DNA from: Catajapyx aquilonaris
Lineage: Eukaryota
Direction of reading: 5' to 3'
DNA: 64,000 nt
NCBI GenBank assembly: GCA_000934665.2
Contig: KZ537986.1
Span: forward strand, 1-64,000
In this document: in pieces, positions 12,685 through 45,852 of the stretch
Layout of the letters: the number at the start of each line of letters is the position of its first letter
Numbering within the stretch: the stretch's first letter is position 1
Notes under the pieces: generated by a model
Told to the model about the DNA's origin: nothing
Databases searched by the model: none
The model's input: the letters and a program-made list of their open reading frames with translations, nothing else
Made by a program: the position numbers and the translations under genes

Positions 12685-12728
12685 CATTATTATTATTATT
12701 GTTATTATTATTATTATTATTATCATCA

Positions 12729-12778
<50 letters not shown>
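12641..12778. repeat. (ATT)n microsatellite, about 46 units with ATC/GTT interruptions
   Basis: Directly visible; it generates the poly-Ile ORFs in the ORF track. Confidence 0.99.
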
Positions 12779-13440
12779 GGTTGGCTGGTCGGAGCTGAGT
12801 CATTTCCCCTGAGGGTGTAACTATTATAATGAACACCAACCACATTGTCATTACCATGTCATCGATTCACGTAGTGTTTCAGTAAATTGCGTTTGTACAG
12901 TGTTAACACAACCAGTTATGGCCCAGCATGGCCGAACCTATACTCCCATCTCGACCTGAGGTACTTGTGGGATATAAAATCTCTCGCTGGCTCAAGACAC
13001 CCCCCCACTTGCAGTAAGTTTCGTATCCGCTTGATATCAGATACGCGGACAGTTTCAGCCCTAATTGAAAATCAGATCCCGGCGAGGATACAATATAGCC
13101 CCCTCCCCCTCCCCCCGGTCCCTCGAAGGCACTTTTACCCCTCCTCTGTAGCCCCGGGTTGATCCAGCCTTTCCCACGAATCAGAGCCTGTCACTGAATT
13201 GCGAGTGAGTTCCTTATGGCTCAGCAGGCGAGCCAGGCTCTCAACTTTGGGCCGCCCATCCAACAGCCCCTTCACTGTTTTAGCGCCAAAGAGCCGTTTT
13301 TCACCCCATTGAGAAAGCAGCTTCGCTCTGGACACAGCTGTATAGGGAATAGCAAAGGTCGTTTCCCCACCGCCGCTGACGTCATCCGGCAACCATTTTG
13401 GATCAGAGGAGAGCTTTCCAAACAAAAATATTCGCCTTAC

Positions 13441-13530
13441 CTCGGCGCGTGACCTGAGGGCTGGATTACGCTCAAAACACCAAAAAGAAGCACGTACCTG
13501 AAACAAGAGGAGACAGTTCGTTAGTGTTAG
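13441..13530 (-). other. Candidate recursive splice site with a 57-nt cryptic exon or micro-exon (13497-13441)
   Basis: The minus strand reads CACTAAC-ACTAAC-GAACTGTCTCCTCTTGTTTCAG|GTACGT, and 57 nt after the junction comes GAG|GTAAGG. There is a tandem branch-point motif, and no AG lies between branch point and acceptor. Confidence 0.65.
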
Positions 13531-16500
13531 TGAGCAGCAAGGTATTACTAGAGGTTAAGATGTATCTTCCAGGAGAAAAATAAAAATAAAAAAAATAGCA
13601 TGAAACAAACCAGGAACGAAGTGCAACCTGTCAAACAACTGGAGCAGATACTTTCTCAAATTCCCCGTCACAATCACTAGGTGGGTAACATCCGTCTGTT
13701 CTATGAAAGAGCTATGTAAGAGACTGCGATTGACCTGAAGGAATCTGCCAAATTGAGTCTGAATAAGGACAGACTTTCTCTGCCATTTCATTGCATCCTA
13801 TGGAAGCGGCCATTTCGCAACTGGCCTGAGCAACGAGCTTAGCCGAAGCAGTTGGTAGTGCACTCTATCCTTAATTACCGTCATGACTAACTACACGTTA
13901 AAAATCCAGCAATTTGAATTCGAATACTGGCCAGGCAGCGGTGGTGCCAAATGCGCAGGAGAATACTGGCGACACGAGTCTCCCGACAGCCTTTACCTAA
14001 CTCTCTCGTTTTGCCAACCCAAAATCACCTTCCAGCCCCCCCCCCCGAGCGACGATCCCCCTTATTTCCCTCCAGCTTTTGCTTCTCCCAACGTACCGGA
14101 AACTTTCCCTTCCAACCACCCTCACACCCCCCTGCAAGCCATAGCTTAGGAATCCTACACCCATGGAAAGATTAACACCATTCTAAACAATCCCGTGAGG
14201 ATTTATATTTGGCTTGGGGCCCACTAAATCACCCTAATTAACTGGGATACGCGCGCCGAGTCGCGGCATGAATCAACCTGGCCTCTCATTGCGGTCGGCA
14301 CTCGAGTACGGAATCGGGAGTTAGTTGGAGGGAGAGAAGGGAGGGAAAAAGAGAAGAGAGGAGAAAAGCACAAGCAACCCTTTTCGTTGAGATGGCTTGC
14401 TTATACCAGCACCACCCAGGGCACCAACCATCAACCGTATACTGTTCAGCCGAACAAAGTTCCGGATACTTGCATGCGTCAGTAACCGCCGTTCAAAGAG
14501 CCATAACTGCATGTTATTCTTCCTCAACTGCCTCAACCTAACTCGATTTTTTCGATAGCTGCCGCCACATTTCCGCACCTCCTTGGGAGGTGGTGCCGGT
14601 GTCGTGACTCAGGTCCATTTTCACGTGCAATGTTTTTCTCGCCTCTAAAAACGTCCAGTTTCTTTTCCCAGCACCCCGCAAGAATGGTCGGTGGGCGGAA
14701 GAAGTCCCCGGCAGGAAGAATCGCCCAGTCACTTAGGAGGACCATTAGACGGTCCCCCGGTCCCTGCAAGCGATCGCTTCCTTCCTTCCTGGCATCCTTC
14801 CTTCCTTCCTTTCCATCCCTATACCCTATATTCTTCCCCGCTACCTCCTCCACCCCCAATCAATTACGGCAACGGAAAAACCCAACGGCATTTCAATACG
14901 GCGACTCTCCTCCTTTCAAAGTGATTTCCACGGCCAGACTCGCCTACTTTTTTTCTCTTCTTGCACCAGCCGCGACGCCATGCTCCTATTAACTGGACAC
15001 GATTGACCATTAAAGAGAGCCGACAGTAAAAATAAACTGCGTTGCAGAGAGTGGTAGCCGGGGAATGGGAGGTGGAGGGCGGGGAGGGAGGGAGGGATGG
15101 GCGTGGGAGGGATTTTCAAAAGACGAGGACTCCGAGTGGGTGAGGGAATCACTGGAATCGGAAAGCTTTTAGCATAAAACGGTCATAGGGGACGGCTCTT
15201 TATTCGGTATTAACAAATGGAATGGCCTCCTCTTTTTCCTCCCCCCTCCTTCGGGCACTCGGAGAGGACTCCGGATCCCTGTCGTGCCCATCCTTCACCA
15301 TGACACTCGCCTGCGACTACTAATATATTTTAGGGACCTTTCTAACGTAAGTCATGCAGACTCCTCCACGACTGACTGACTCTCAGGAGTGTATTTCTTG
15401 AAAATGCAGTGTGAACATGTCTTGCTGCTGCCCCGATTGCAACATTTCTACCCGGAGCGCTACAGTATTTCTACAGTAGGTTATGCATGCGTCAAGATAT
15501 TACTGCGTGGAAGAGCTATGAACAAAACTACATTAGGAAAGACCTCACAAATAGTGAGCTAGCTAACGTGTCACATAAAGTAATCCAAGTTTAGCAAGGA
15601 AACTTCTGTACATATTCATAAGATCATAAGTAAGCAGCTACATCTCCGGGCAGAAAACATTTCTTTCAATAATGGGACAAAAAGGAAGCCTACTAACAAT
15701 TGGTCTCTGGTAGGGAAGTTTGCCTTGGAAGAAAGGACCTTTGACTTCGTATACTAAAGTTTCCATTCTCGGATATTCCTGTCCTAGGTTGAACGGGCTA
15801 ATTAAATTCAGAGTAATATTACAGGTATGACTTTTGCTGCCCAAAGTAGCTGCTGTTAATCGACCTAACAGTAATGAAATACAGCTTAACTAAATCGTGA
15901 TATGTTGTGAGGGCAGTACTGTGCACCTTGTGAACTTACGTAGCTGTACGTGTGCCACCACCGCATACTTGTGAGAGTACGAGATTAACAAATCTTGCTG
16001 GGGGAGACCTGCAGCTAAATCAGATTGGCCCATTACTTCCAAAGCAGTTTATTTATCCGGGTCAATCTGGCGGAAACGAATCCCCCTTCCCACACCGATA
16101 GTTCAAGGCTTGCACACACAAAAAAAGGAGGGTTTGGGTAAGACCGGGCGGTCTCTAGACCTATGACCACCCTTGTGAAACTGCCTGGGAGGGGCAGGCA
16201 AGGGCCATTATTTCCCCGGAGCAACGCTGAATCACTTCAGAGACTGCTCAAGTGGAGTTTGCCAGTACTGCACAAGAGGGTGTATACTTAATATCCCAGC
16301 TCCCTCTCAGTCCACCCACCAAACCTTCTTACACTTGAGACCCGTCCAAAAACTTTTCGCCCGCTTCAGAAATGAAGCGGTCCACTTGCTCAGCACTCCC
16401 GAATGATTTACACCCCACCACAATTTCATTAGCATGATCATTATAACAGGAGAGCAGCGCCAGCCCATTATTTAGGCCTAATATGAATTATGACGATCTA

Positions 16501-19500
16501 TTGCCCCTCGATGTAGGTGCATCAAAGGATACACTGCGATACACAAATTGAGTATCGATTATCTTGTTATCTCCCTACAATGAGGGAGCAATCCATTCTC
16601 CGAGGTAATCGAAACACTCACAAATAGCGAATCAAATTAACGCCATCTATGACAACGGAACCATCCGTGCCGCCAATGAAACAATGCTGCTCTTCAACCG
16701 GAATTCTCCAGAGAAGTAAAATTAGATTGCCAGACTCAATTTATCAACTTCCAATATCTCCATCTCGTTCTTTTTTCTCGGAGGCACGAGAAAAAATTGG
16801 ATCATTTTCAGGCTAGTAAACAGACAAAGATCCAGAACCCTCTCGCGCAAAACCACCTTGACGTGAACAAAAGAAGGAATGGGGGAGGGGGGAAAAAACG
16901 TGTATCTATATCTCGCCAGCAACGTTCCGGGGGAGTAAATGACGACTTTATTAATGAAAGCGACGTGAATGCTTAAGCGGTGAGCACGAAGACGGTTTCA
17001 AGTTAGTTGAGCGAAACGGACAGATTTGTTACGAGGGGTTACGGCCAAGTTAAGTCCTCTCTTCCCCAGCAGAAACTGCGCCTTGAATCTCCGGGCTAAG
17101 GTGCGGAGACGACCGCATTCGTTACTCTATTTTTTTCATGCAGAAAAAAAGCAGTCTGCTCACTTCACCTAATAACTATTAAGTATGCGCCGAATTAAGC
17201 CATCTGACGATTTTTCATTTCTTCTCTCCCTCCCCCCGGAGCGCATAAAAAGATGAGGGAGCACACTAACTCTGAAATGTCTCGTGCGGACAAGGAGAAA
17301 CTATGCCGGGTAATTTGAATTTATTACTTCCTCCATTATGAGGGCATTAAGTACGATGGCTGCTTACTAAAGTGCCTTGTGTGGTTTCCGCGCCAGGGGA
17401 ATTTATTCCCCCTGTGTATTTGCGGATTCCGCACTGCTTCTGCAACCAGGTGCAAGAGGATGACTTACAACACCCAGCAGAATAAAAATGGGCGATACAA
17501 GTTAAGACCAAGGGATAGCTTCGCATCCAATATGCAGTATATTAAGCCTTGGTGACAACGACCCAGAGACGGTGCAGTAGCGAGCCGATCTGGGCTGGCC
17601 AGCAGACCTTCCTGTACCGCACGCTGGCTCTTTATCTACAAAACGGACCGAAATCCAGGCGTCGTATTGACCGACAAACCTCGTTAGCCATGCACAGACG
17701 TGAGTGTCTGCGTAAATTAATAATGCGCTGTATCCCCGCCTATGCTATTCCGCTTCCAAGAATAGGGCTACCCGACGGCTACTTTATTATTCCATCGTTT
17801 GAAATTAGCGTCCGTCTATGACAGGAGCACAAACTGGGCAAAATTTTTGCGAGTGGGCCTCACTCCTTTGTTGCCCAGCCAGGTATTTCCAGTGCTAAGG
17901 AATTATTGGCCAGCTCTGGACAAACAGCAGAACCAAAAATAAGGTTAACCGTAATTAAGGTTGTATCAAGTCAACACCTGCAATTTTGAGAGTATTTTTT
18001 CTCTCTACTAATGAAGCAAAAAATAATAATTTTTTAGGAAAACTTCATGCCTGCCTTGCCGAGCAATGACTGTAAACGGCGAACAAAAAGCAAACTTCAG
18101 ACGGGGAAAAAGTTCTTCCCATCCACAAACATGCATCGACATTCCTTGCTATCCTCCTAATTAATTTGAAAACATAAGTACAGCCGCCATCAGTACCCAT
18201 TTCCTGATTCAAAAACATTGTGCAGACGTCCTCAAAATCATTTACAGCAAAACCCCTGCCAGACCCTGGATCTGAAATCCCTGAATCAAAAATCACATGC
18301 CTTTGCAACTATCTAATCATTATCTATTTTTAAAAGGTATAATAAGAGTCCAGATGTAACAAATCCTTACGTGTAACTCAACAAATAGTCGCCTCGTTAC
18401 GAACCAAATTACGCCCTCCCGACAGGACATGCCCGTGAGTGCATCTCAAATGTTTCCAGGTCACCTCCGGGCCGGCCGCCCTTTGACATTTTGTCCCGAG
18501 CGATTACCGTCTCAGAAAATATCCCCCCGCATAGTTGCCCTCTCCTGTAGAGCGGTCTGGCTTAATTCGCCTGGCCATAGCAGCACTCCACAACTTCCCT
18601 TTTCGGAGATAGTCGGGCGTTGACGTCACCAGGCCCATCGCAATTCAAAAGTCAATAATTTTGCTGCTCCGTCCCACTAATCTTCTCGCCCTACTTGTCC
18701 CGCAAGGTAACCTATTATGCAACACTAATTACGAGAAGTTTACCGAAGCATCCACCGAAGAAGAAGAAAACGAAATGCAATCGAAAAACCGGAATCTGGC
18801 ACACAGGTACAGTGTTTTTTTTTTTCCTAGCTGGGTTTCCCTTATCACTTCCTGCAATCAGAAGGCGAGATTAAATATTTATTGAGTATCGACGCCTCAG
18901 TTATGGCGTGGAACGCGCAGCCGTGCTCTCAGCACCAATTAGGGCGCTTTGCCTGGCCTAAAACCGTTTTCCTCTGCGAAAAACAACTTACACCCAACCA
19001 AAATTGCCACCCACGTTGGCTAAGTGGTCGCAATCAATATGGTAAATGAGCGGCACATTACACACAGTATTCGTCAAATGTTTCGTAATGACGCTCCATC
19101 CAACCAGTTACCGAAATAATAATAAAGAAAAAAAATGCGTTTTCAAAATTCAGTTCCAAATTTCTAGGTTACAAACATCTGACGGGGGGTAAAATCCATC
19201 CGAGTTTAACGTGCAGTCATCACCGGCCATGCTGCTTCAGTGGTGACAGAGCAACATTAGTCATCTTTCTTATCTCCGTGGCAGTGACACATAGCAGGAT
19301 CTGTAATGTGACTGCCTTAAGCATAATCCATGCCTAAAGCCGTCACTCTCGCGGCAAAAAGGTCCAAATTCCAGGCTGTCATGGCAGAAGCAGTTGCAAG
19401 CAAACCCCCCCTTCCTATCCACGCGTGCACTTGGCCGCAGGTTTAAAATTCGGGCCTAATGACCGGTTTCTTTATCAAATTACCGCTGCGAGAGGAATGC

Positions 19501-22500
19501 CGTTCCGTTTCGGGAGCACTCTCAAAGCCGGTCTGACGGAACGGTAATGATATTCGGTAACATAGTTACCGGTAACAAAAACGGGGCCGGCAAAGTTACC
19601 GGTCCATGCCGCTGACCTCCGGCGACACAAGGCGGCAACTGAGAAGGTCGATTCTCTCAAATTCTCCCCCAAATTGATGCCCCGCTTTTGATTGGCTTAT
19701 TATGGGAACACCGAGTCAACTTAGGCCACGAGGCATTAGCGAGGGTCATACCTATTAGAAAGAAATGTCTTTTTGGTGAAATTTCATTGGACGAGATTCT
19801 TACACGGAACCTGAGAGTTGGAAGGATATGCCGTGAAGCGAAATTCAGGTCACCGACAAAATTCGCTGGCATTTCCAAGTCCGGCGGCCACTTCTGTTGT
19901 TCGTCCCACTCGCGCTGTTATGCCAAGATTTCTGGACGGAAAGTCATAAATCGGGCATGGGTGCCAGTAACCGGCATGGCGCCCACCCCCGCCGACTTCC
20001 TGCTGGAGCAAGTGGCGAATCTCCTTATACGTCATGAAGGGGGGAGGGAAAGGGGTGGAGAGAGTGGTGGTGGATGGAAGAGACGGGGGAGGGAGGTATA
20101 GGGAGGGAGGTGGGTGGGAAGCGGTCCTTTCTGCAAACATCCCCTACTCTGCGGCGAAAGAACACGGATCGGCCTCCCCCTCCAGTTTTGTCTGCCCGCC
20201 TCCCCCAACCAAGCTGAGCAAACACAGATAACCCGCTGCAAAGCGAGCTTTGTTTGATCATGCAAATGGCGGATTATGCCCGTTTGCATAAGTCAATAAT
20301 TGGCAGCTAGGCGCGGCCCCTTTGTAAAATCAATCAAAGGGGTTCAGAAGCTTTGTTGTTCCTACCTCGCACTCTTCCGCCCCCACTTACGCACCGCCAA
20401 AGGCAGGGCGACACACCCCGGGGGTCCTTATGTACTGGACCTGCGACTTGTGTGTGTGGTGTCAGCCTGTGTGTCGGTGTGTGCTCAACCGGACACGCTT
20501 ATGCTCTCTGTCTGTATTAATACTTCAGTGCACAGGAAAACCTGCTGGTGTAAACAACCGAGCTTGGGTCAGTATACCAACACCGGTGCTTGCTCTTATC
20601 GACTCGCCTGCATAGTACAAATTCTGGGAATGATGAGTGAGGGAATAATGATGGGGTTTACGCACACTGCGTATAGCAATTCCACTCACTCAGACTGCAA
20701 ATATTGATAGGAAAACTGCTGTACTTTGGGATATTGCCTGACGGTGCGCTCGATCTGGAGTACGATACGACACACCTCGCCTTCTTTGCCTATAGCCTTG
20801 AGTGGTGCCCAAGGAAAAGCTTGCAAAACTAACAAAGCACACACACATACACTGGGTGATCGAAAAGAATGTGCTCAATATGGTTAGTTAGATAAATTCA
20901 AGCAAGCTAGGCCATAATGCTACCTCGATATTGCACTACACCCTGTATGGCCCACCCCAATAATGTAATGCTCTCGGTCATTAAAAGATGGGTATCTAGA
21001 CGAAATCAAAAATTCCCCACGCATTTGTGGCCACCCTTTGCGGAGATAAAAAGGGCGATGTGAAGACGTCAAATTTTGCGTGAGCCAGGACGGCTTTGCC
21101 ACCAAGCCATATATCAATATTGTGCGGTCATTTTAGCGCTTTGTTTTGCTAATCACGCCACATCAGCCTTGTCACGGACGCAATTGGAATGTATGTGTGT
21201 TTTGCCTGGTGTAATCTGCAGACCGAATCCGGGGGCTTTCTCCAAAATTGGCCGTCGCATGCAAAATTCTCCGCAAGTTGCCCTACTAACAACTATCCGC
21301 GGTTGGTTTTGATAGTATCTGAAGTACGGAACAAGGGCTTGGAATACATATTTAACGAGTGTGTGTTTTGGTTTCTAGGCAGGTCGTTTACCCGCGAAGC
21401 CGGTAAGTATACTAACCTAACTGAGACGTCACCTCCACAGCTCAACACGGTTGGTGTTTAACGCCCTGAAAGGACACTGGCACCAAAAACACCAGCCGAG
21501 TGCCAGCCCAATGGCGGCGACAGGACCTGAAACTATGTACATGTCTTGCTTCCAGATCATCACTTGGTAACCCACGACACGTAATAACACGCAAATGTTG
21601 TCACCCTACACTGCATTATGCAGATTTGCTAATTTTTCAATCTAGCTAATTTCAAAAATCACCGCCGGGTCCAAATGCTGCTGAACTCTCCCACCACCCC
21701 GAAATCCAATTCCTCTCACTACTTATGATTTGAAACTAAATTCTGCCACTGTACGGCCATTACAGCCGCTGCAGTCCGTTTTCCACTGAACAACCGCACT
21801 GATGACATGTGTGCAGGTTAATATGGCTCTAATAACGTACGTTGTGGGAGAAGTTAATTATGGAAGCTCCACTTTCCAACTCGGAAAACAAAGCAGCTTG
21901 TGTTCCGCCATCTCATGGGATGGCTCAAAAATTACAATGCATTAGCAATTGCAGTTAGCTAATAGTTCATATATACTGCTTAACCGCACGTAGCACTAGC
22001 AATTTTTTCTGCGCATTTTTCCCTGTTTCGGGCAGCGTCCCCACCGGCTATCAAAACTTCCGCCTGGATTCATTTCCAACAGGAGGACTCACCTCCCCAC
22101 CCCCCGAAAAAAAAGAGAAAAAATCGGATTCTGGTATCGCCATAAAACCAGAAGCAATTGAACCCCGGCTGCCAACCAGGTTCGATACAACTGGTTTTTC
22201 CGGGAGTCCCAGGCTCCCCAAAGTGGACTCGGCGACGACGGCTTCCTTTTCGGAAGGTGGAGTGGAAGGGGAGAAAGCAGGGCAAGAGATGGGGTGCGGG
22301 GAGGAGTGGGCGGAGGGGAGGGGGAGGTTTAAAGAGTCCACAACTCTCAATTATTAGAGCTCTTGAAGAGCTTCCAAGGCATTATAAACAGGTACTTTGC
22401 ACGGTTAATGGGGAAAACCGAGCGGGGTGGCAGCAAAGCGGGGACCTGGTCTTTTCTCGCGGGGAGAATATTGTAATCGGACCCATTAGACCCAGGCTAA

Positions 22501-22678
22501 GAATAACCCGCCGCCGCTGGGTAATGACGAGTATCGTCTGCACTTTCCCAGAGTTATCCCGGTAGCAACCTGCTTAGCAAGCGAGCCTCCCCCGAAAATG
22601 CATGATCTCGCAAACAGTAATGATCCTTACTAAATTACTCCACACACAACACTCTGGGGGGAAGAGGGAGGGGGGGGG

Positions 22679-22816
22679 NNNNNNNNNNNNNNNNNNNNNN
22701 NNNNNNNNNNNNNNNNNNNNNNNNNNNNNNNNNNNNNNNNNNNNNNNNNNNNNNNNNNNNNNNNNNNNNNNNNNNNNNNNNNNNNNNNNNNNNNNNNNNN
22801 NNNNNNNNNNNNNNNN
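22679..22816. other. Assembly gap (138 N)
   Basis: Run of N immediately after a G-homopolymer, with more G-rich sequence downstream. Confidence 1.
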
Positions 22817-25800
22817 GATAAAGAAGAACCATTAAGCTACAAGGAGGGCGGGGGAAGAGTGAGGGAGGGGAAGAATTGGAGGGGAGAAGGGGGGGGGGGG
22901 AGAGGAGGCCTTAAGCTGTGCCTGAGATATATGGTGGTCGGACCGAATGTTAGCAAAATCCTACACGACCTGACTTGAAACATTGTAATTAGCGGCAATG
23001 GATAATAATGAAAGATGGAGAGGGTCCCGGTGGCCAAAGTGGCCGCACTTATTCACACAAGCAGGACTGGGGAAAGGGAAAAGAGGTGGGGGGAGGCTCA
23101 GGGAGGAAGGGGAATTAGCGACAATAGGGACGTGCAGAAAAAGAAAAGTTCTTTCCGAACACGATACCGTCTTAACGAGTGTCTTCAACGGAATACAGTA
23201 ACGACGGTAGTACCTCCCTAGCTGCATGTATATATTTTTATATCCCGTCTCCTCCTCGTTTTCTTCGAAATTATCCTACTTTAGAGCACATCTTTGATTT
23301 CCCTCCCATTTATCCGGTTTGAAAATCCTTTGAAGCAATGCATGGGGGAAGCCGTGGGTCCAATTTGGAAAAAAAGTAACACAGAAAGGGAGAGTCATGG
23401 TGAATGAGAAAGAAAGGGAAAAAAGGAAGAAAAAGGGAGAAAAAAACTCGTCTAACTCCCTCCACTCAAGAGCGAATAAGCTTTGGGGCTCCAAGTCATG
23501 CGCCCGCTTTTCAAATATGGCACTGGGAGAGAAACCCTGATTTTGCAGGGATTTGCCTATGTCGTCGCTTATAGGAGTTTTTGGCTGTGGGCCCCCAGAG
23601 CTCTGCCGGCTCCACTAACCTTTCAAGTTAAATAGTCCTCTACTTGAGCAGAAAAGTTTCGGCTATGGCGATAAGGGCGAGAGACGACTCTGAAAGAACA
23701 GCACGGCACACCCTTCTCCCCATCCTCCCACAACTGCTCTACATGCAAAATGGAAGGGAAATATAATCGCGACTCTGCTCGAAGCTTCGCCAGGTCTGAC
23801 CGATTATACTACGAATGATGTCAAATCAACCGCCTTCCCAGCCAGATTACATGTTTCGTAATCAGCGCCAGTCTCCGCCTAAATCACCGAAGGTCACTGC
23901 AGCACTCGACTGCAGCAGCAGCAGCACCATTCGAAGTGGGCTCAACTATCGAAAAGTGCCTAATGGAAATTTTCACAATAACTGTCCGCAATAAAACTTG
24001 ATTCACTTTGCGCACGACTTGCATGTTAGCAGAATTTCAATTCATTTTTTTCAGGCACATTAATAGCTTTCGTTGTTCAGTTTCTGACTGCCAAAAAATT
24101 AAGCGAGTCATTCCATATCATGCAAAGTAAAAAAATTAAAAATTAAAAGACAAGAACCTCGTGTATTTTTACGAGCTCTTTCAGTATAACACTTTAACCC
24201 CGAAAAATTCACCTGAGAGGCAGTGCGTCATCAAGTACTGCGTTTTATTGTTCCAAAGTGCTTGCACTCCTGCCATTTACGACTAGAACATTCCACTAGA
24301 GACGCCAAAGCAGTCATATCGCATCTGAATCTGGAGCTAATAATATTGTAGGCATTGTTACGCATTCTATGCGGCATTTTTAAATGTCAAAAAGCGTTAC
24401 GCTGTATTTGCGTGCCTTGTGCTGGGTGGACGCGTGCTTTGCATAACGCCATCCATTTATGCCATTTTTTTCTTACCCGCGCTGAATAATTCATCCGAAC
24501 ACCCAGTATGTGTCTCAATTTCGCTGTTGCCAACCATTAGCTTGACTGCAGCATCCGATGCTTCATTACGGTGCGACAAGGGCGCAAAATTCGATGGGCT
24601 ACACATGGCCGCATCAAGTGTCAATTTTTATCCCCGGACCGACAGGAATCACTCCCGAGGATGATGTGGGGAGGGGAGCAGGCCGGGAGAGAGGTGGCGA
24701 GGAATCCTCCGCATTAAAACATCGTTTCCATTCACTCCCGGCTCCCATTTGCAAAGCATCCAGGTGAGGCATTTTCCAATTCCCCCCCCCCCCCTCTCCT
24801 AAAATGATCGATGGTCCTTTTCCCTCCCACGCTCCAAAGCCTTCCTTCCGCCGCCCATATGTAACACGCATCCAAGAAGAATTACGCAACCGCTGCTGGA
24901 TATACCCCAAGTGGTGCTCCTAGCAGCGGCACCATCCTGCTTTTGGCAACCCTTCTCTCCCCATTACATTACATTCATAACCATCGTTCTGTTTATGGTC
25001 CTGCTATTACATTTTGAGGTCTGCCATTTCCTCTTCGACAATGAATCCCAATTAACGTTAACGGGACAATATGGAGAGGCGGGGCAGGGCAAAAAGAAGG
25101 AAAAAATTGCGAACGCACGTGTTCGCTCCCCTGCCGCTCGTGAACAAAATGTGTTTATTTTTACGGCCGGTTTGATGCTTCGTGGTGGGCGGAGCACGCC
25201 AAACATTGGAGGTTAATTCCCCGCCGACTCCGGTAAATACAGTTGGGAAGAGGATTACTTTTGCACCCAGTGCCGGCCTATTATCAAATCCACTATACTC
25301 CCCCGCAGTGGACTCGGAAAGCACTCGGTTTCTCCTCGCTGACAGCCCTGTTATTGGCCAGTAATACGACGGCTCCTCACAAAAGGGCCGAGGAGAAATT
25401 GATTTGTTCCAGGCTGGTCACCAAGCCACCATCAACTTCCCTCGAGCCTTCGACATACGCACAAAGGAGGGCCCTCCCAGCAGAGGCGGAAAGTGTCTCC
25501 GATCCATCACTCACCAATCAGCCACTTTCCGCAATAAAGATTTCCTGTCTCACGCGCCGAAAGACTTCTGGGTCGGGGAGATTAATGCCCCTGCTCTTCA
25601 AGACACCCGCGGCCGCATCCTTCCATGCAAAGTGTCAGCAGGTACAAGGACTCTCCTCCTTGTCCTACACCGGCATCACAATCGGATTACTCCCACTTCA
25701 GCCGGGGAAGTGAAACACCAACTTGATCGCAACCGCATCAAGGACAGATCTCCGATTGCAGATTAGACACTCCACAGAGAAAAAGGGGCCTGCAGTTCAA

Positions 25801-34374: not shown

Positions 34375-34421
34375 CTCTCTCTCTCTCTCTCTCTCCCCCT
34401 CCCTCTCTCTCTCTCTCTCTC
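34375..34421. repeat. Interrupted (CT)n/(GA)n microsatellite
   Basis: Two CT runs separated by CCCCCTCC, forming a homopyrimidine quasi-mirror repeat. Confidence 0.95.
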
Positions 34422-35423
34422 CCAACCCCCGCCCCCCCTCTCTCTCTTGGAATCAGTTTTGAAATACCCCCGAAATTCAATGGAACCGTCATGAACATTC
34501 CGGCGGCATCCGGGATTAAAATCGTGCGGACTCGTGAATAACCACGCGCGGTCTAACGTTGAAACAGACGGGGATCTAAAAAGGAGCGTTTGGGCTGCAA
34601 AAGCATTCGCCAACTATTTCCATCCCTTGCAGGCACAACCCCGCATCCCCTACCTCCCCAGCCCACCCTTCCAAAATGATTAACCTTTCATAATATCTCA
34701 GCGCCAGCATCGCGTGAGGGGCACGCGCAAGTAAAAATCACCGGCCATCCAGCATCTCAACGCCGAAGGAAAATGGCCGTCTTTCCTTCTCCTTTTTTCC
34801 CCCCCTTCCATTATACCCTTCGGAAGACGCTGCTTCATTAAAATCGCCCGCCTCATTAAACCTCTGGAAAGCATTAAAACCGAATGCCTTGCTTCACCCA
34901 TTGTTTTTAGAGGAAAGGGAAGCTTACAGCACGTGCACACGAGCCAATACTGACGAAACGTCCGTGTAGCCGCTTTTTTTTCTGATGGGGGGTAAGGGGG
35001 TTGAGGGAACTGGTGGGGTCGGGGTTGGTGCAAGGTAGTCGAACTCTCCCAGTCCATCATTCCGGGCGAGGCTGGCACCAGAAACAATGGGTGCCGATTC
35101 CTCCTCGCCAGTCCCTCTCGAAACAGAAAAAGAGAGAGAGTTGGGAGAGGGGGGGCAAAACAAGAGAGCCTGATTAGTTAGTGCAAATGCCCTGTCAGGA
35201 AGACTGCATGGCAAGGATGCAGGAAACGGATTGCGCCTTTCCTGCGGAGTTTTATGGGAGCCGTATCGGGTCTAATGCCCCGTGGAAAAGGGGAAGGGAG
35301 GGGCTCCCGGGAGCAGCCGGGCACCAGATTACCCAGGATCCTCCACGGTGCACGAATTTCATCACAGTCGAGAGAGCTTCGAACAGAAATCTGAGGCAAG
35401 GGGGGGGCAGGGGCAGGTTGAGC

Positions 35424-35445
35424 GGGGTTGGGGTGGGGTGGGGGG
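35424..35445 (+). other. Canonical G-quadruplex motif
   Basis: GGGGTTGGGGTGGGGTGGGGGG: four tracts of at least four G with 1-2 nt loops. Confidence 0.8.
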
Positions 35446-38400
35446 AAGTAGACTACGATTTTAAAATTAGCTCGGCTCCGCCGACGGAATGGATTGCACC
35501 GAGGAAAATGAGCTTTCCGTGTAGGAAGAGCTTGTCGCACATAGAATATCATATTTGGAGGGATCAGTGTGTCTACCCTGACAGGGCCGTTTTACTTTTC
35601 TTGTCATGTAGGATTTGAGATAAGGCCTTAGGATTCCAAGAGAGCGCAGCCAAATCATATTTTCGGAACTACCCAATCAGCACGGTTCGGTAATTTGTAG
35701 ATTCGGATGGGGAAAGGAGGAGGGAGGTTGACACAAAGTCGAAACGTCCAATTTGTTGTTGTCTCGCATTTTCACTTCTCAAATAATTTCACGACTGATC
35801 AGCTTAGGTAAGAAAACAGGCTTCGTATAGTAATTCCTCCACTGCATACAGCCTGTAGGGTTGCTGGGCCGTCCCAGTCAAGAGACACGCCTCAGCTAGA
35901 AGGGTTACACCGAGGGGTACTCTTCCCCAGCTCTTGGGAACGCATCATGCCATCAAATTTGCGTTACACAAGTTCTAAACATATTTTTTCCCCTCCTTTC
36001 TCCGTCCCTGCCCGTGTTATAAATACATCCCAACTACCTCCAGTGCGGCACACTGACCATGTTGTAAAGCTCCCCACTGTGGCGTGGAAAAGCAGAACTA
36101 TAGCACTCCCCCGCCCCCTGTAAAAAGGGAAGCTAATTAACTCAACCTCTGGTATCTCATTAACTCATTTTCCTACCTGCACGCCATCAGAAACTGTTCT
36201 TGGAAAAGCAGCGCACGCCAGAGGCCTCAATTCTACATGCAGAATTATTCGCACATTAAGGTCCTAACCCTGCAGTATGCGCCTTTTCCCATCTCCCATT
36301 CTCATCTCTATCGCCCGCGGCGATACATGCTCGCTGAAATCTCCCCGCAGTTACCATGGAATATTTGAATACCGCGGGTGCAGCCGAAATACCCCCGGAA
36401 AACTGAAGAACTGCTCGACCCCCACAACGCACTCCACCCTCTCATGCCACTCCCTCCCTCCCTGCTTGCACCACTCTCTCTCTACCCTAGAGCTACGTGG
36501 TTTTGCAAGCCCAGAGAAAGTGCAGGTCTTGTTCTCTCCACTCCCATCCCGCACCTCCTTTTTCCCCACCCACTACGATATCTGAAAAGCAGGCACAGTT
36601 TCAAAACTTGCCCGAAAGAGAAATGACGCGGTAAGCAAACGGGATTGCTCGTTGCTCAAGTTTGCCAGGGATCGACGTACAAAGTGGGGGTATATGCTCT
36701 GGCGGCAACAGGAAGCCGGATGGAGATGTTTTGTGCAATAACACGGTTGGTATACTTCATTTCCAAGTGCCTCTAGTAATCGCTCAAGTGGGAGGAGGGG
36801 GAAGGTGGATAGGAGGAAAAGCAGATTCATAATCCCCTTCCTTGCCACGTCCCCCATTGTTGCAAGTACTTCCCCGAATAAGGGGAATAAGGAGACTAAA
36901 AAAGAACGCGCCCTCCAACTTATGCAAAGGGCCCACTTTGCCTATAGGTGCGCGCACACTAGCACCGGAGTTAACTTCCAGGCCAAAGCAAAATTTCCAT
37001 TCATCAACTTGTACATACCAGCAAGGTAAATTTAAAGTATCTCCGCTTTCTTTTCATTCAATTCCTAAGTTGTTCAGCTTCGGATCAAGTGCTGTACAGG
37101 TTCAACCAAGAAGGAAGAGTCACCGGTTTCAACACTTTCCTTCTTTTGCTGTTAGAGTTAGACAATAAACTGAAAATATTCCATTAATGGCTCTTGTGAG
37201 GTGAGAAAATCCTCCTTTCCGCGATGGTGAGCGACACAGGGAAGTACGCGACGGGACCCTAAACCTCCACCCAAGTTGCATGATTGAGTCTAATCTAGGC
37301 TCCTGTGCGACCTATAGCCCGGTCGAATCACTTTGACCGCAAAGCCACTCCCAACATATGTCCTCCACGTACGTGTTGCACCCCCATTTTCTTCCCCTTG
37401 CACACAAACCCCTCCATATTTGCAAAGGCTTTGCACCGGTCCCCTTGTGAAAACTCCCTTCCCTCCCTCCCTCCCGTCCCCTCACACACTCTCTCTCCTC
37501 CCGCGTTAATTTCGGATCGGGCGGCCTTAGCCAACTTCGGGAACCAGCCCATCTGATGCCGACAGCCCCTCCAACAAGCATAATTCGAGCACACTCGGGC
37601 GTCCTGTTAGCCTGTTACCTCCACAAACCCACGTCAATGGGAGCCAGGCCCATGTCCCTACAGAAAAGCAGGCCTTGCGGAAATTTGCAACCAGAGTAAT
37701 CTTGCACTCCCGGGGTTCCGTTGAGGGAGGGAGAGGTAGGGGGGAAGAGAAACGGCAGGATACAAATAAATTCCGCAGACTCGGAATTCAATTAGTTTAC
37801 TTTGCTTACTTTCAAGGGAGAGAGAGCCGGATTCTCCTGCCTCCAACCTCCACCCGCCCAACCTGCCCTCCCCCCTGCAGGTAAGAAATGCATGGCTTCA
37901 CCTGAGCGTCATATAGCATTTTCGGATCAACTCTTGTTCTAGCCCAAGGCTTTGGTGCGCCAAAAATTAGTCTTTGAGCACCTGAAATTTTTTTGACGGA
38001 CCAATTGGCAGCCGGGGGGAGAAAACGCATGGGGTAGGCCTAGGCGAACTTTGTTTGAACTAACGGGCCTGCCTGCATTTATTCCCAGGTGACTTTGCCA
38101 TAAATTTAACAGGCCATGTAGTGTAAAGTGCACACTGGGGCAAAGATAAACAAAAGAATTTTCAGAATTTGGCCCCAACTCACCCACCGCATACTCCCAG
38201 CATAGCAAACGCTCACGTTCGGAATAGTCCCGCGGCTAATAACTAACGAGCAGGTAGGCCTAACTAGTGCAAGTAGTTGAAAATGTCATAATTTTGTTAA
38301 AATTTTGTTAGCGAGCATTTCCTGGAAATTAAGTCAGCAGTAGTTCACCAAACTCTCTGTTGCATACGCTGCACATTAAAATTAAGAGCAACTTTGTTTC

Positions 38401-40547
38401 GAAAAAATTCTGCTCAATTCGAGTATTTTTCACTCTTGAAATAATTGCACCAACTTCTTTTGAATGAAACATTTTCCTCGGTGACATCAAAGGTCATTTT
38501 CTGAAGTACCACTTTTGCTCAAACCAAATTGAAAATTTGATCTAAAAATGCGGGTAATGAGTCAGCTCAAGGACAACGTTCTCTCGCGAGTATTGGGTGG
38601 TATACGTATTTCAAGTCTATAAAACGTGCAAAACCACTCAAAATAATTTAACACAATTAACGATTAAATGCGAAATCCTGTACAGTCGCGAGCAAAAGGT
38701 GGGGTCAGAATCTCCAACATATTCACTCTAAAATCGGTGACAGAGAATATACAGCAGGGGACATCACAATTTTGAGATACTCCGCCAAGCACTTGTACTC
38801 CCCTAGTACAATTCATTGGAGCAGGGACATGTCCCGCTCTACAGAAAACTAGTAGGAACTTCTCCTCCAGGCCCCTCTCACGATTGCATAGTCTATGTAT
38901 TTCAGTGCAATATTAATAAAAGCAAATACAATCAGGATCGAAAGTTTTGTCGATGGTAATCCCTATAATAAGTTACTACATTTCAAATGGCAAAATAATC
39001 GGAAAAATCGCGTATTTAGTTACTTTTCAACATCCACCCTGGCCCATGCAGTAGAAGCAAGAAAGATCTGCAGAGTAAACAGCATCACATTTTACTCGCT
39101 TTCCATTGTCATCATTGCGAGCGCGGCTGTTTATAACATTTCGGTGCCCCCCTTCCACGAGACCCGGGCGCTGCTTCCTACAAACCCTCGTTAGAGTAGG
39201 CGCAATGGGGAATCCAAGTTCCATCGGCGACCGTAACCAATATGTCAGGGACAGGAAAAGAGCAGTTAGAAACTCCGGAGAGGATCCGGGGCGGCCGCAG
39301 CGACCGTCCAGTTTTGCCGTCGCCCTGCAGCTTGTACGCGCCAGGCTCCGGTAGCCAGGGAAATGGAATGGCATCGACAAGGGGATTTCTATAGGCAGCA
39401 CACAGACCGGAACCAGGAGGGGGGAGGGGGGGGGGACTGAAAAGGGAAAAGGGGGTGAGCGGAGGGGGGCAGCAACCGGGCCAGAGAGAACCCACACCGT
39501 GCAAGACCTTTCTCTCTCTGTACTGTTGGAGTGCGCCCCCGCCCTCTCATTGCGTCGAAATTCGTAAACATGTCCGCCTATATACGGTCCAGTTGTTGAC
39601 AAAATACAATTGGTATCGTATTGGCGGCTCATAAATTGAGCCGGATTTCCGGAATATATTGTGTCGCTGTCAGATGGAATCGATTTCCCGGGATCTATTG
39701 CGCTGTATGCATCAATGGCCCGGAACAAGTTCGGCGGTCTCCATTTTCATGACCAATATTTGTCGCCCGATAATTAATAAATTATTGGCTAAATATCTGG
39801 GAAACTATTAATCCGCCCCCAGCCCCGCTGCACCCTTTCTGGACACCACAACAACCGAAGCGGTTTGATGCGCATTAGCGCTAGCTTCGGCTGCCTGGGC
39901 ACGTTATCTCGCGACGATTTGGAATATAACTTAACCCATTTATTTAGCTCCCCTTTCTGCAACACCTCCAATATAAATGGGTTGCGTATCAGCGCCCCAG
40001 ATAAAATGTCGCACCTTATAAACCAGCTGAACCGACTTCCATGTCATACACATGAGCAGGGTTCGACGTGTGGTTCTAACCTTAATAGCGCTGCCCACCA
40101 TTAGCAATAAAATCTACTATAGCTCCATGAAAGTTTATTGTTTGCTTTTTTTCGTCACTCATGTGTAAGACAAAGACACCCAGTCACGTCATTATCGGCA
40201 AACATTAGTGAATGAACGCAGGACTTTACAACGGCAGGGTCTAGACTCTCGAGTTACTGCATGACTATACGTATAAGTCGATGCTGTTGATAAACTTACT
40301 TCATCAACTCGGGAACATTAAAGATAGGTCGTCTCCCATAACGATCTCGGCAATTTTGCCTACTAGGGTGGGCAGCCAATTACACAGGATTAAATGCACT
40401 CGGTAGATTGTAATACACCCATAGCTGCAGCAAAACCGTCCGTTTGGTCTACTGCCGCAACAACTCGTTTAGACTACAACTCCCTCTGGAGGCATAATAG
40501 AAAGTTATAACTAGGGCCGGCAGGGCGATAAAGCAGGCTGCAGAACG

Positions 40548-40620
40548 GCCGCTTCCGGATTCGAACCCTGCAACGTCACGACCACAACGTGAAACATTCC
40601 CGGATTAACTCCTTGGCGGC
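40548..40620 (-). pseudogene. tRNA-His(GTG)-like pseudogene or tRNA-derived SINE head
   Basis: The minus strand reads GCCGC...TCACG-TTGTGGT-CGTGA (perfect 5-bp anticodon stem, GTG anticodon), then CGTTG-CAGGG-TTCGAAT-CCGGA-AGCGGC. B-box spacing is about right and the GCCGC/GCGGC acceptor ends pair, but the D-arm/A-box and T-stem are broken. Confidence 0.5.
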
Positions 40621-41926
40621 AGCAGCGGGCCAGCTTGCATGGTGAGAATCCGGGAACTGCTCTAAACTATCCGCGGCGGCGGCCCCCATCTCCTTGGCGG
40701 GCCTGAGGCGACGCGATTACCAGCCCAAGTTCGCTTGTTCCTGCAGAACACCAGTGGTATTCCGGCCTCGAGCTTTCCAGCTTGTGGTGTGATCCTACAC
40801 GCACAATCCATTCCGAGACTACTTGGTGGCGAACGACCGCAACCGCAGCCAGAGTGATTTTTGTCACGCCTTCAGAACAGCCTTCAGCTCTTACTTGTCC
40901 TTCAGCACTAGCAGCGGGAGCTATTTGCCTAGTCCTATAGCTTTCGATACTGTACAGTGTACAGTACTTGCGTAATTCCTGGCCAATTCTGCATATCCCA
41001 CCTTTCCCCTAGCCTTATTCACCCAGTCAGGAGGCAACATACTAGTAGTTACGTAAAATCGAGATTACAGTACTAACACAAACCACGGTATGTTATGAGC
41101 TGCATTGCAACGCAACCGATGCCCAACCTCTCCCAAGTTGCACGTCCTTCTAGCGCCTGTGGGTTATGCAGCGCGTGCTACAAGGGTGCGGTTGCATATC
41201 GGGCCAGGATGAAGGAAAAGTGGCTCGCCAACATTCATCCCCGGACATGGATTTCCTCTCAAAAGGACAACTTCAAACGGAGTTCAACCTATCTCTCGTT
41301 TATATGCTGACAGTAGAGTGATGTAATTGCAAGGTAGAAAGGGGCCAGTTATTGCTGTTATGCCATGAAAACTAGACTCTTTCATGTTTTACGGACCTAG
41401 AAAGAAGTGAATTGTCCCATTCCATCTGCGTTCCTTTCCTCCCTACTCTATACTGTACAGTGTAACCAACCTGGAGGCGCAAATTGACCGTGACGGAATG
41501 CTGAAGAAAGGATCCTTCCCAAAATAGATGTTGTCGCTGTGCGCCATAATTATTGGCAGAGATTGTACCGGTACTTAACAATATCAGAAGCAAAAGTGCA
41601 GCTCATTTTTTCCTATTGCGTTTATGAGTTGTGAAAATCAGAGTTTGAAATTAGATGCGAGAATTTTCAGCTTTTAAATTGGCGACAGGATTTTTTTATT
41701 ATTATTATTATTTTACAGCAGTGGTAGGCCTACATGTAAATCAAGACCAATAAATTGTTTGTGCCGCGTATTACTTGCTATACTGATATGAAATGAAATC
41801 GATGATGACACAAAACTTGTTGCACAATGTGGCAACCCTTCAAAATGGGAATTATAATGTAAGTACCGACGCGACGGTACCTTTTTTTTTTTGCTTTTTT
41901 TTGCTATACACGCTTATTTCAAAACA

Positions 41927-41976
41927 TGACTCAAAAACTCCTATGACAGGCAGAGGTTTCGAATCCTGACAGCTGC
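41927..41976 (+). pseudogene. Possible 3' half of a decayed tRNA (Ser-like) or SINE fragment
   Basis: TGACTCAAAA...GGTTTCGAATCCTGACAGCTGC resembles, from memory, the anticodon loop, T-loop and 3' end of arthropod tRNA-Ser. There is no 5' half. Confidence 0.2.
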
Positions 41977-44900
41977 TATTGTCCGGAGTAATTTTAAAAC
42001 GCCAGGCACATTTCTCATTAGACAAGGAGCTTTACATGAGATTACAGTATTAGCTACAAAGAAAAAGAAGCCAATCCGTATAAAATCAAATTTAAAAAAA
42101 TAAAAATGCCAGTCCACTGCGCGTCTATAGGGATAGGCTTTACAGCTCTTTCAAATAACCCATCATTAGGCAGTGGCAGCCGGGTGCACGCTCGAATACA
42201 ATATTGGTCTTCTCCTATAATTATGTCATTGACAGCTAATCACGCCTATAGACAGCAGCACAGCGTCGAAGGGCGCACTCTTTATTTTGTAATCGCTTTC
42301 TAAAATTAGTCGACAAAATGAAAAGTTCAGAATTAATCAGACGTGCAGGTTTTCCCCTTTAATTAAAGGACCATCTCTCCCCCTCCTTTACTCGCCAATC
42401 CAGTAATTCTTCCTCCGTGATTAATGTAAATAATTTATCCGTCGGGGAGAGAGGAGTGCGGGGAGGGGGCTGGTGGAAACAAGGATTAGCGCCGTACCAT
42501 TTCTCCCAGCTCTCCGGCAGTAAAAATGCTGTAAGATTCTTAATTCGATATCATAAAAGAATAGATCCAATTTCCCAAGGAAAGGGGAGATGCTCGCTGG
42601 CTGCCACTGCACCGGATGGCCCGGAGAATAAAAAGACCCGTAGCCAGGCTCCAATTGGCGCTGGGAGCCTGATTGACCTCCCACTGAAGACTGATGAAAC
42701 CTGCAGCAACAAAGCCGAGACCCTCAACCCAAAAAAAAGCGCTTCTCTTTTCCTCTCTGGGCCTGTGTAATTCCTTTGCCGGCCGTTTCCTTGTAGGACC
42801 AACCCTGTCCTTTTATTCCCCCCTACCACCCGGACCTCCCTCCCCCTCGCAAAGTCAGCCACCGCGACAATATTGGATGCCCTTGTCCCTATCTCATCAG
42901 TAATAAAATTCCACTTTCCGGCCCGATTGATTCCTCCACTTTAATTCCTATCTGCCCGTGCGCCCGGAACAAGAGATAAGAGCCTTCACAATGTTTCTCC
43001 GAGCTACTGCGTTATATCCTCGACTCCCAGACCCTTTTTTTTAGACTTTCTTAGAAAATTCCGCTCTTATTTGCGAGCCCGCTCCTTTACAAACATTTTA
43101 TAATTGCGCCGTTGTTGGGAGAGGAAAAAAATCCGAGCTGGAGTTTCAACTGATTGCTAATCCTGTAAATGGATTTGGCTCGGATTATTAACACATGACA
43201 TGGCGGGGTTGGGAAGCCCACGCAGGCCAAACGCTACCCTATTATGTCCTGCCACACCCTGCTTAAATTACAGTTTTGTGTTGCAGTATTCAAGAGGAGA
43301 GTTGCTACTTGTTGCAGGCTGCATCTAAGCACAGCACAGTAATTAATTCCACTTCAGGCTGACTCTGCCACTGTGCGGGTTAATTACCTCCCCCATCCTT
43401 TACGGGTCTACGCGCACCGAGCTCTACTAGCAAGTGTATACAGTACAAGACTACACTGTGAAGCCTGGCCCGCCGGGTTGGGTGGGTGGTTGGTTGGATG
43501 GGGCGGGTGGCGCCACTCAGACTACAACATATAATTGCTGGGGCCACAACACTATCTGGCCGAGTCTTTGACCGGCCTTCGTTACCATGTGTAGAGCAGG
43601 GCACACGGCGCATTGAACAAATTTTAACAACGTGTACAGTATCCCAGCGTACAAGAGGGGCGTCAGAGAGCCGATTAACCGCTCCCACGGATTACGGATA
43701 ATTCCTAGGCGAGGTAGGGGTGGGGTGTGTGCGAGAGAGAGAGAGAGAAGGGGAAAAAAATGCTGCGAGGGAACCCGATAAAGTGGGCCGCGAAACTCAG
43801 TAATCGGTGTACAAATTTCTAAATTCCATTAGCGCTTCCCAGGGATAATATATTTACTCAATTCGCCAGAATAATGTGTTTACCTCATTACGCCTGGTAT
43901 TTCGTAATTTACCGAGGTTTCATTACACTTTCATCCAACTCGTTTGCACTTTACATGACCCGCGACCATAAAGCAGGCATTTTAACAATGCCGAAAGGCC
44001 CCCGAAATTTAGTGTATTTGCTGCCCACAAATGCAGATACTTAAGCCATATATCGCGCGGATTTATGACAACGCCTCACTCAAGTTTCGCGATAAAAGCA
44101 ACTAATGGGGGAGGCAAATTATTTACAAATCTAATAATACGCAACCGCATTATTAGGAGCGGGGGTCTTCCGGGTAAGCACGACCTATAAATCTCAGACT
44201 TGGGGTTGTTGGATGTGCCAGCCAGCTTAGCCGCCAATAAATAAATCGGCAGATAAATCCGGGCACATCTACACCGGGCGACACTTGGGCTTCCCCTCTA
44301 CCTACTCTCCTGGACGCCATATTACAAAATCCTCCAAGTTGGAAAGCCACCTCCCCCCCCCCTCTCTCTCTCCATCCTCGGTTCCTCCCACCCCTGCCCC
44401 CCTCCGAACACTCCTCATCAGAGCTATAGCCTTCCGCCAACTGCCAGACGCAGGCCTCCTCAGTAAATTATGCACGCCCAGTGTATCTGGTGAAAATCAT
44501 CAGGGATTATGCAGTCTGGCAAGTGACGACCATTAGCCCCCCTCCCCCTCCCTACTCCTCCCCTCATAGCCCCCATCTACCCTCACCGCACGACCGGTAA
44601 ATCGGCTGCTTGAAATTAGTCAACCCATCAGGATTGATAGTTTCTCTGCTTAGTGCTCTCCACACCTCTCATACAGGGTTGTACGCAAAGACAGATCCAA
44701 ATTTTTCCGAAGCGGTGTCAGACAAGCCCAATGACAGCTTGGTTGCGTTTCTTAATTGGCACCCAGTAAAACGGACGTTGGTCCAGACCTGAGAGGGGCA
44801 AAATACAATCCATTTTGCTGGTGCCCACCCAAAATTGCAGGACAGTAAAACCTAGTCAGGACCGGACGTGCCAGGGGTTAAGGGTCCGTCTCGAAGCGGC

Positions 44901-45819
44901 GGCAGCTAACTCACACGTGCCCCTCCTCTCAGCAATGTCGATATATCAATCCGGGTTCGGTGGGGAACTGCCACGACCACGAATTATCGGGACGCCGGTG
45001 AAAGATTTAGGGGCCTCCGTATTATTTCCAGCTAATCTTTCATTCCGAGCGGCTCTCAACCCGAGAACCCCCCTCCCCCTCCCCCGCACCAGATCTTCCG
45101 AAAAAATGGTGCCCCGCCCGTTTTTATGACACCGTTTTCTGTCCTGGCCTCCACTTGTGGAGAATAACGCGTACCCAGCTTTTCTTCTTGCTTTTTTAAG
45201 AACGTTCCCGGGTGGCTACAAGTAGGTCCGAGGCGGTTGTCGCTTTTGTTCCGATGCTTACACTGCACTGTACTGAAGGCTTCCTGCATTGAAGGAGCCT
45301 GACAGCTGGATACGACAACCTTTCCTTTCCTGCAAATAATATGTCCCATCTTGAACCAAGTTTCCAATGCATGACAAATAAGTGCCTTCAGGTGAGTAGC
45401 ATCGCCCCCAAACTTCCACTCCCGTCCAACCACCAAAAAAAAAAAAAGATGGCTTCTGCAAGGACAGCCCTCCCAATAGTTGTGAAAGTATCGCCTGTAA
45501 AATCCCAGCAGCTGCGCCCGCCCTACAAAGAGGGCCTTGAATGCCGAGTTTCTCTACAATGGCCTCGGTTACGGAGTTTCTACTTCAGAAGCCAAACGGC
45601 CGGTCTGATGGCATGGCTCCTCTGTCGAACCATATTTTACTGCCCTTTTACGGCTTAGCAAACGGCAAGAACCTATTGGAATGTCTGCAGGGGGGGAAAT
45701 CGCCTCGTCCTCCTGCGGTCACTTCGATACCAAAGTAATTGCCTGGATACTTATCTGCATTTAGTGCTGCGGGTGGGCAATTTCGTTCGCGTATACTACG
45801 AGGGATGAAAGCCAGTCTG

Positions 45820-45852
45820 ACTCACCTAGAAAGGAAGAGAGGACACAGTTAG
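45820..45852 (-). other. Candidate recursive splice site (ratchet point), junction 45826/45825
   Basis: The minus strand reads GCTAAC-TGTGTCCTCTCTTCCTTTCTAG|GTGAGT: branch point, long AG-free pyrimidine tract, and a TAG acceptor fused to a consensus GTGAGT donor. Confidence 0.7.

Follow-up and report, generated by a model that had tools for sequence, protein, structure and literature searches.

The locus described here raises the question whether an invertebrate outside Drosophila might remove a very long intron in steps, by means of splice acceptors that are joined directly to a new donor. In Drosophila, intronic ratchet points, i.e., zero-nucleotide recursive splice sites, were reportedly described by Burnette in 2005. 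The DNA under study is a window of 64,000 nucleotides, that is, the whole stretch that was analyzed, comprising positions 1 to 64,000 of contig KZ537986.1 of Catajapyx aquilonaris (assembly GCA_000934665.2). An initial annotation of this window proposed two ratchet points on its minus strand, and we refer to these elements as site 1 (45820-45852) and site 2 (13435-13530). Site 2 was found to resemble a recursive splicing exon (RS-exon) in the 5' untranslated region (5'UTR) of the Drosophila melanogaster gene mub, the name of which stands for 'mushroom-body expressed'.

Inspection of the sequence bore out the architecture that had been described for both elements (Table 1). Each consists of a CTAAC motif, an AG-free pyrimidine tract and a YAG that is joined to a donor, and the distance from the branch A to the acceptor G is 23 nt in both sites. 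In site 1, pyrimidines occupy 18 of the 20 positions of the tract after CTAAC and 15 of 16 positions over -20 to -5. The 13-mer AACTGT(G/C)TCCTCT, with which both tracts were said to begin, is indeed present in both sites, but in a different register: it ends 12 versus 8 nt ahead of the AG in the two sites and overlaps with CTAAC at site 1 only. In a MAFFT comparison, sites 1 and 2 are out of register. Because the registers differ, the shared 13-mer is a resemblance and not an alignment.

Table 1. Features of the window and of the two candidate recursive splice sites (positions of the window; all on the minus strand).
Feature	Position	Strand	Description
Presumed transcribed non-coding (intronic or 5'UTR-intronic) DNA	1-64000	minus	Strand skew; no Pfam family, period-3 signal (outside microsatellites) or dispersed repeat
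Site 1 branch-point motif CTAAC	45848-45852	minus	Branch A at 45849, 23 nt ahead of acceptor G
Site 1 AG-free pyrimidine tract	45829-45847	minus	19 nt; TT at -6/-5
Site 1 core TAG|GTGAGT	45820-45828	minus	TAG 45828-45826, GTGAGT 45825-45820; junction 45826/45825; donor 8/9 consensus positions; candidate zero-length ratchet point
Site 2 tandem CTAAC motifs	13520-13530	minus	CTAACACTAAC; CTAAC at 13524-13520, second CTAAC at 13530-13526; branch A candidates 13527 (-29) and 13521 (-23)
Site 2 AG-free pyrimidine tract	13501-13519	minus	13/16 pyrimidines (-20 to -5); TT at -6/-5
Site 2 core CAG|GTACGT	13492-13500	minus	CAG 13500-13498, GTACGT 13497-13492; junction 13498/13497; donor 8/9 consensus positions
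Putative 57-nt RS-exon	13441-13497	minus	Begins with regenerated donor GTACGT; 2/3 frames open
RS-exon donor GAG|GTAAGG	13435-13440	minus	7/9 consensus positions; junction 13441/13440

Ratchet points of Drosophila are characterized by a juxtaposed AG|GT with a more prominent pyrimidine tract, by TT at positions -6/-5 (196 of 197 ratchet points) and by branch points that lie mostly at -36 to -21 (Duff et al., preprint). They are located in introns of 11-133 kb, which they cut into segments of 2.6-63.6 kb (Duff et al., preprint). As far as the motifs tell, sites 1 and 2 carry all of these sequence features, i.e., AG|GT, tract, TT and branch motif. A candidate branch A 21-36 nt upstream is present, at the motif level only, at -23 in both sites and additionally at -29 in site 2, and the 32.3-kb spacing between the sites falls inside the range of fly segments. 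The S1 table of Pai et al. (2018), consisting of 539 fly rows, was probed with k-mers taken from the two sites. This table contains 51 occurrences of AGGTGAGT and 11 of AGGTACGT, and the latter count indicates that the unusual GTACGT is a genuine ratchet-point donor in the fly.

The combination of features is much rarer than its parts. The bare core YAG|GTRAGT is found once per strand in the window, approximately as expected, and AG|GT is found 416 times (237 on the minus and 179 on the plus strand). A composite filter demanding YAG, absence of AG from the tract, a minimum of 13 pyrimidines in 16 positions and a donor agreeing with three or more of the four RAGT positions was passed by two AG|GT sites on the minus strand (sites 1 and 2) and by one on the plus strand (37880); when TT at -6/-5, the Drosophila rule, was added, two sites remained on the minus strand and none on the plus strand. 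Chance was modeled by Markov chains of order 1, 3 and 5, with 400 simulations per order (n = 1200). The simulated mean per strand was 0.14-0.27 sites without TT, fell to 0.03-0.055 once TT was demanded and to 0-0.0075 when a branch motif was required as well. Two or more sites with TT were found in none of the 1200 simulations, and a site of the grade of site 1 was seen in none of the 1200 simulated strands. Among all acceptor-like sites (45 on the plus and 49 on the minus strand), TT together with a branch motif was found at one on the plus strand and at two on the minus strand, and these two are sites 1 and 2.

A dispersed repeat as the origin of both sites was considered and rejected, as neither BLAST of the window against itself nor comparison of the flanks revealed a common copy; the motif does not belong to a repeat dispersed within the window. 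The 2.1-kb flanks of the two sites have only a 17-nt G-run in common. As to conservation elsewhere, exact 24-mers of both sites gave no matches in metagenome contigs. The 17-mer in question, GGGGGAGGGGGAGGGGG, has only two copies in the window, both on the minus strand (45069-45085 and 13099-13115), approximately 740 nt downstream of site 1 and 385 nt downstream of site 2. GGGGG is counted 205 times on the minus strand versus 137 times on the plus strand. The pair could be a low-complexity coincidence, or it could represent intronic G-run elements near the sites.

Downstream of site 2, a second donor (GAG|GTAAGG) lies 57 nt past the junction, and position 13441, the predicted end of the exon, is also the coordinate at which the stretch marked by the initial annotation starts. 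In the model of Joseph and Lai (2021), an RS-exon is described as a cryptic exon of about 50 nt that is closed by a downstream donor competing with the regenerated donor. Judging from this layout, the term 57-nt RS-exon appears to suit site 2 better than that of a zero-length point.

The k-mer probe also pointed to a specific fly counterpart of site 2. The 14-mer GTTTCAGGTACGTG occurs in one of the 539 rows of the S1 table (Pai et al., 2018), and this row is mub (FBgn0262737), where the motif is the single ratchet point of a 32-kb intron (3L:21868425-21900444). Site 2 agrees with the mub motif at 17 of 20 positions from -20 to -1, the three mismatches all being C/T exchanges, and at 7 of 7 positions from +1 to +7; the identity is 24/28 over the core and 27/37 overall. 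Both tracts contain ACTGT at -20 to -16 and G at -7. When the 416 AG|GT sites of the window were compared with the mub motif, the mean score was 9.8 (sd 2.2) and the runner-up reached 17. Nine other fly motifs from the same table, counted by hand, matched site 2 at 15-18 of 28 positions. Features shared with mub are rare in the 539 fly rows, with 6 occurrences for ACTGT, 11 for GTTTCAGGT and 3 for AGGTACGTG. The mub RS-exon of the fly is 59 nt long (chr3L:21881734-21881792), is located in the 5'UTR, is expressed and is included in 12-24% of transcripts; its ratchet-point donor GTACGT scores 0.94 and its exon donor 0.67, and 8 of the 10 RS-exons listed with it measure 51-69 nt (Joseph and Lai, 2021, Table S1). 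Recursive splicing of the mub exon was shown in the fly by mutation of the ratchet-point donor, according to the same paper. Two D. melanogaster mub primers that flank the exon are absent from the window at up to three mismatches, and hence the window is not from D. melanogaster itself. A 57-nt exon in non-coding surroundings and within a long intron is what an orthologue of the mub exon would look like, and the agreement of the motifs suggests that site 2 is likely orthologous to the RS-exon in the 5'UTR of D. melanogaster mub.

The surroundings of both sites have the appearance of non-coding DNA. A Pfam scan of 864 open reading frames (ORFs) was performed. No match rose above cut-off, either among the 458 ORFs of 60 aa or more from both strands, which were scanned completely and gave five matches below it (E 0.0027-0.0091), or among the 406 ORFs of 33-59 aa from the minus strand, likewise scanned completely, which gave one. 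The long ORFs of the window resemble translated non-coding DNA, no period-3 signal was detected in the window except at (ATT)n arrays, and neither Rfam families at gathering score nor tRNAs were found in it. The claim that no coding exon lies between the two sites is consistent with the Pfam scans and with the lack of a period-3 signal. Neither KH nor any other Pfam family was found among the 864 ORFs; were the window part of a 5'UTR intron, no KH domain would be expected in it, and its absence provides no positive evidence on the host gene. The window has a GC content of 47% and a CpG observed/expected ratio of 0.82, a value that we take to be unlike that of vertebrates, and the contigs of one DNA run containing the window total approximately 256 Mb at a word depth of about 25. 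The runs found for 41001-51000 were four DNA runs of one sample and one run of unspecified kind. The interval 12790-22670 is covered completely by the DNA run with these contigs, and the run of unspecified kind gave only a 34-nt low-complexity piece there, an outcome that speaks neither for nor against expression.

The base composition is polarized along the whole window. Of the 64 1-kb bins of the plus strand, 54 have more C than G and 53 have more A than T, and consequently G exceeds C (+0.076) and T exceeds A (+0.062) on the minus strand throughout its full length. This polarity is that of the non-template strand and of introns in human and mouse genes, according to a review. The skew fits the minus strand as the sense strand, under a rule from human and mouse that may not hold in this organism.

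In the reading that we favor, with a probability of about 0.5, most of the window would be a single non-coding minus-strand intron of at least 64 kb that is removed stepwise through both sites, site 2 being the orthologue of the mub RS-exon; as a process, stepwise removal is plausible from the arrangement of the motifs. An upstream exon past position 64000 would be spliced first to the acceptor at 45826, recreating a donor (exon end plus GTGAGT), and this regenerated donor would be joined, 32.3 kb onward, to the AG at 13498. There, at site 2, the spliceosome would first define the 57-nt RS-exon (13497-13441) with the aid of the exon's own donor GAG|GTAAGG. Two outcomes would then be open, namely skipping of the exon through use of GTACGT or inclusion of a 57-nt non-coding exon through use of its own donor GTAAGG, and splicing would go on to an exon at the low end of the window or past it. 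Site 2 would accordingly correspond to the 5'UTR RS-exon of mub, which encodes a KH-domain RNA-binding protein.

This reading retains much of the initial annotation in modified form. The proposal of two ratchet points holds in so far as both sites show the sequence features, exceed chance and lie on the sense-like strand; it needs amendment because site 1 lacks a downstream donor and site 2 is better viewed as an RS-exon. The proposal that the window is a minus-strand intron agrees with the skew and with the absence of a coding exon, although neither flanking exon lies in the window. As to the host gene, site 2 closely matches a verified fly RS-exon in mub, and no KH-domain exon is present in the window.

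Several observations weigh against stepwise removal through both sites. With respect to site 1, CTAGGTGAGT has no occurrence in the 539 fly rows (k-mer probe of the S1 table of Pai et al., 2018), so that this site is without a fly counterpart, and its identity to the mub ratchet-point motif is 14/28. Site 2 has a 57-nt exon closed by GAG|GTAAGG with 7/9 consensus positions, whereas the best donor within 260 nt downstream of site 1 scores 5/9 and none reaches 6/9, which counts against site 1 since the RS-exon model expects such a donor. With respect to site 2, the donor of the exon has a perfect GTAAG and the ratchet-point donor has C at +4; in a competition between these donors, the exon might simply be included. 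The match to mub was obtained by k-mer probing without scoring all 539 rows, and because of this, and because a length of this order is usual among RS-exons, the orthology is graded as likely and not firmer.

The alternative that survives best builds on these differences. Only site 2 would be functional, as a short alternative 5'UTR exon or as an RS-exon, site 1 would be a non-functional or decoy match and there would be no two-step 32-kb ratchet; of a fly counterpart and a downstream donor, site 2 has both and site 1 neither. Judged by motif, however, site 1 is stronger than site 2: it combines 15/16 pyrimidines, TT, CTAAC at -23 and GTGAGT, a grade that was absent from all 1200 simulated strands. 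It also lies on the strand of site 2 and at a spacing that is typical of the fly. We consider it unlikely that only site 2 is functional.

The next alternative places the sites in untranscribed or plus-strand DNA, for instance a gene desert, where the motifs would have arisen by chance or persist as relics. Neither a flanking exon nor a KH-domain exon was found within the 64-kb window (Pfam, 864 ORFs), and for this reason the status as an intron and the host gene are unproven; the window likewise yielded no exon or promoter. The skew rule is known from human and mouse and may not mark transcription in this organism. The scan from which the sites emerged spans very many windows, so rare coincidences arise, and the composite thresholds were fixed after site 2 had been seen, which makes the rarity figures given above somewhat flattering. 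The plus strand has a looser composite match of its own, CAG|GTAAGA at 37880, with a C-rich tract and without TT at -6/-5. The sole plus-strand acceptor-like site with TT at -6/-5 and a branch motif is located at 1134; it reads TTGTTTCTAG|GGCAGG, has CTAAT at -25 and is not followed by a donor. Despite the post hoc thresholds, the excess over chance is still large: the composite lies far above the Markov expectation, sites 1 and 2 are the sole acceptors of the minus strand with TT plus a branch motif, site 2 matches the mub ratchet point at 24/28 positions and the strand skew is uniform over the window. An origin of both sites by chance or as relics is distinctly improbable. A further plus-strand element, CAG|GTGACT at 38088, has CTAAC at -25 and is also without TT at -6/-5; it lies 208 nt from 37880. 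These two look-alikes may have arisen by chance and may serve as an antisense control.

That both sites serve alternative non-coding exons as ordinary 3' splice sites, where the following GT never acts as a donor and no recursion takes place, is very improbable: any exon needs a strong acceptor with a branch point and a pyrimidine tract, and site 2 has a full 57-nt exon with a good donor, but by our own arithmetic only about 0.5% of random exons would open with GT and at least three of the four RAGT positions, which here is true of both best acceptors, and the fly mub equivalent was shown to be recursive by the donor mutation mentioned above (Joseph and Lai, 2021).

The window contains a few other elements. 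BLAST of the window against itself returned only a palindrome (55610-55737) and a tandem repeat with a 94-bp unit present 1.9 times at 78% match (6761-6936). The palindrome is part of a near-perfect inverted repeat of 133 nt (55608-55740), which as RNA folds into a single long hairpin of -86.8 kcal/mol (z = -16.4 versus shuffles); its Rfam matches are only to long-hairpin microRNA families and lie far under the gathering scores. It looks like either a locus of a hairpin RNA or a palindromic element of the miniature inverted-repeat transposable element type. The sole period-3 peaks of the window are caused by three trinucleotide microsatellites that belong to one family, (ATT)46 at 12641-12778, (TTA)27 at 47850-47930 and (ATT)18 at 63164-63218. 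An assembly gap of 138 N (22679-22816) is located between sites 1 and 2.

If the sites are confirmed by RNA, the locus would be a case of recursive splicing in an invertebrate other than Drosophila. The initial annotation saw in this an extension of recursive splicing to a new invertebrate lineage, a claim that is weaker than it was put, because enrichment of the motif in other insects and in the sea urchin was already published in 2009. In the large introns of mosquito, bee, beetle, fly and sea urchin, the sense strand carries ratchet point sites (RP-sites) at 4 to more than 20 times the frequency of the complement, where about 0.1 are found per 100 kb (Shepard et al., 2009). The numbers for such introns and their complements, again per 100 kb, are 2.20 versus 0.10 in the fly, 1.03 versus 0 in the mosquito, 0.81 versus 0.10 in the beetle, 0.48 versus 0.12 in the bee and 0.54 versus 0.07 in the sea urchin (Shepard et al., 2009, Table 2). 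With their complement value (about 0.1 per 100 kb) taken as the expected rate, our own arithmetic gives a Poisson probability of approximately 0.002 for finding two sites on a single strand of 64 kb; our definition of an RP-site differs from theirs. A recursive site in the locust was predicted and backed by a U2AF65 immunoprecipitation assay, and a survey of recursive splicing in the lungfish exists. A 2026 review lists documented recursive splicing for Drosophila, mouse and human only, and our search of a limited body of literature found no demonstration at the RNA level in an invertebrate other than Drosophila.

What makes the locus most interesting is that the core of the mub RS-exon appears to be deeply conserved. 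We tentatively suggest, as a possibility short of even odds, that this core has been kept near letter-for-letter in Drosophila and in a distant invertebrate, that recursion at this exon is ancient, and that site 1 is a lineage-specific gain that accompanied growth of the intron. If true, the mub core would have been retained in a lineage with a larger and GC-richer genome, and site 1, 32 kb upstream, would be a natural case of ratchet points being added as introns grow. Confirmation would thus provide both a particular RS-exon that is conserved over a deep split and a pair of sites for studying the gain of ratchet points during intron expansion.

Several known systems can be compared with the two sites. 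Vertebrate RS-exons are first defined as exons, after which two donors compete (Sibley, 2015, as cited in Joseph and Lai, 2021); site 2 would share with these exons a downstream donor that first defines the exon and then competes with the other donor. Most vertebrate RS-exons are included, the sense-strand enrichment of the motif in vertebrates is weak, with ratios of 0.9-1.5 (Shepard et al., 2009, Table 2), and the window has the CpG ratio given above. The Ubx microexons mI and mII are 51 nt long and are re-spliced at the exon starts (Duff et al., preprint; Joseph and Lai, 2021). Like these, the putative exon at site 2 is a short cassette exon opening with a donor sequence, so that joining would regenerate a 5' splice site; unlike it, the Ubx exons encode protein and are ultraconserved from end to end, and no sign of either was seen here.

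The ratchet points of Drosophila share with sites 1 and 2 the juxtaposed acceptor and donor, a long AG-free tract, TT, a branch motif and a donor of the GTGAGT/GTACGT type, as well as the spacing and the non-coding setting. They differ in that site 1 has no recognizable cryptic-exon donor and in that the candidates described here are predicted from sequence; the window is further set apart from D. melanogaster by the missing mub primers, the GC content of 47% and the contig total of about 256 Mb. The mub RS-exon is the closest single counterpart. Its core is shared at 24/28 positions including the unusual ACTGT at -20 to -16, G at -7, C at +4 and G at +7, its length is 59 nt compared to 57 nt here, and both exons are non-coding and within a long intron. 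Identity ends upstream of -20 and past +7, the upstream segment is at least 32 kb here versus 13.3 kb in the fly, and the exon donor appears stronger here than that of the fly (0.67). The study of Shepard et al. (2009) resembles the present one in predicting ratchet points of invertebrates other than Drosophila from motifs only; whereas theirs was a genome-wide count without individual sites, the present analysis concerns two specific sites, one of which has a counterpart in the fly.

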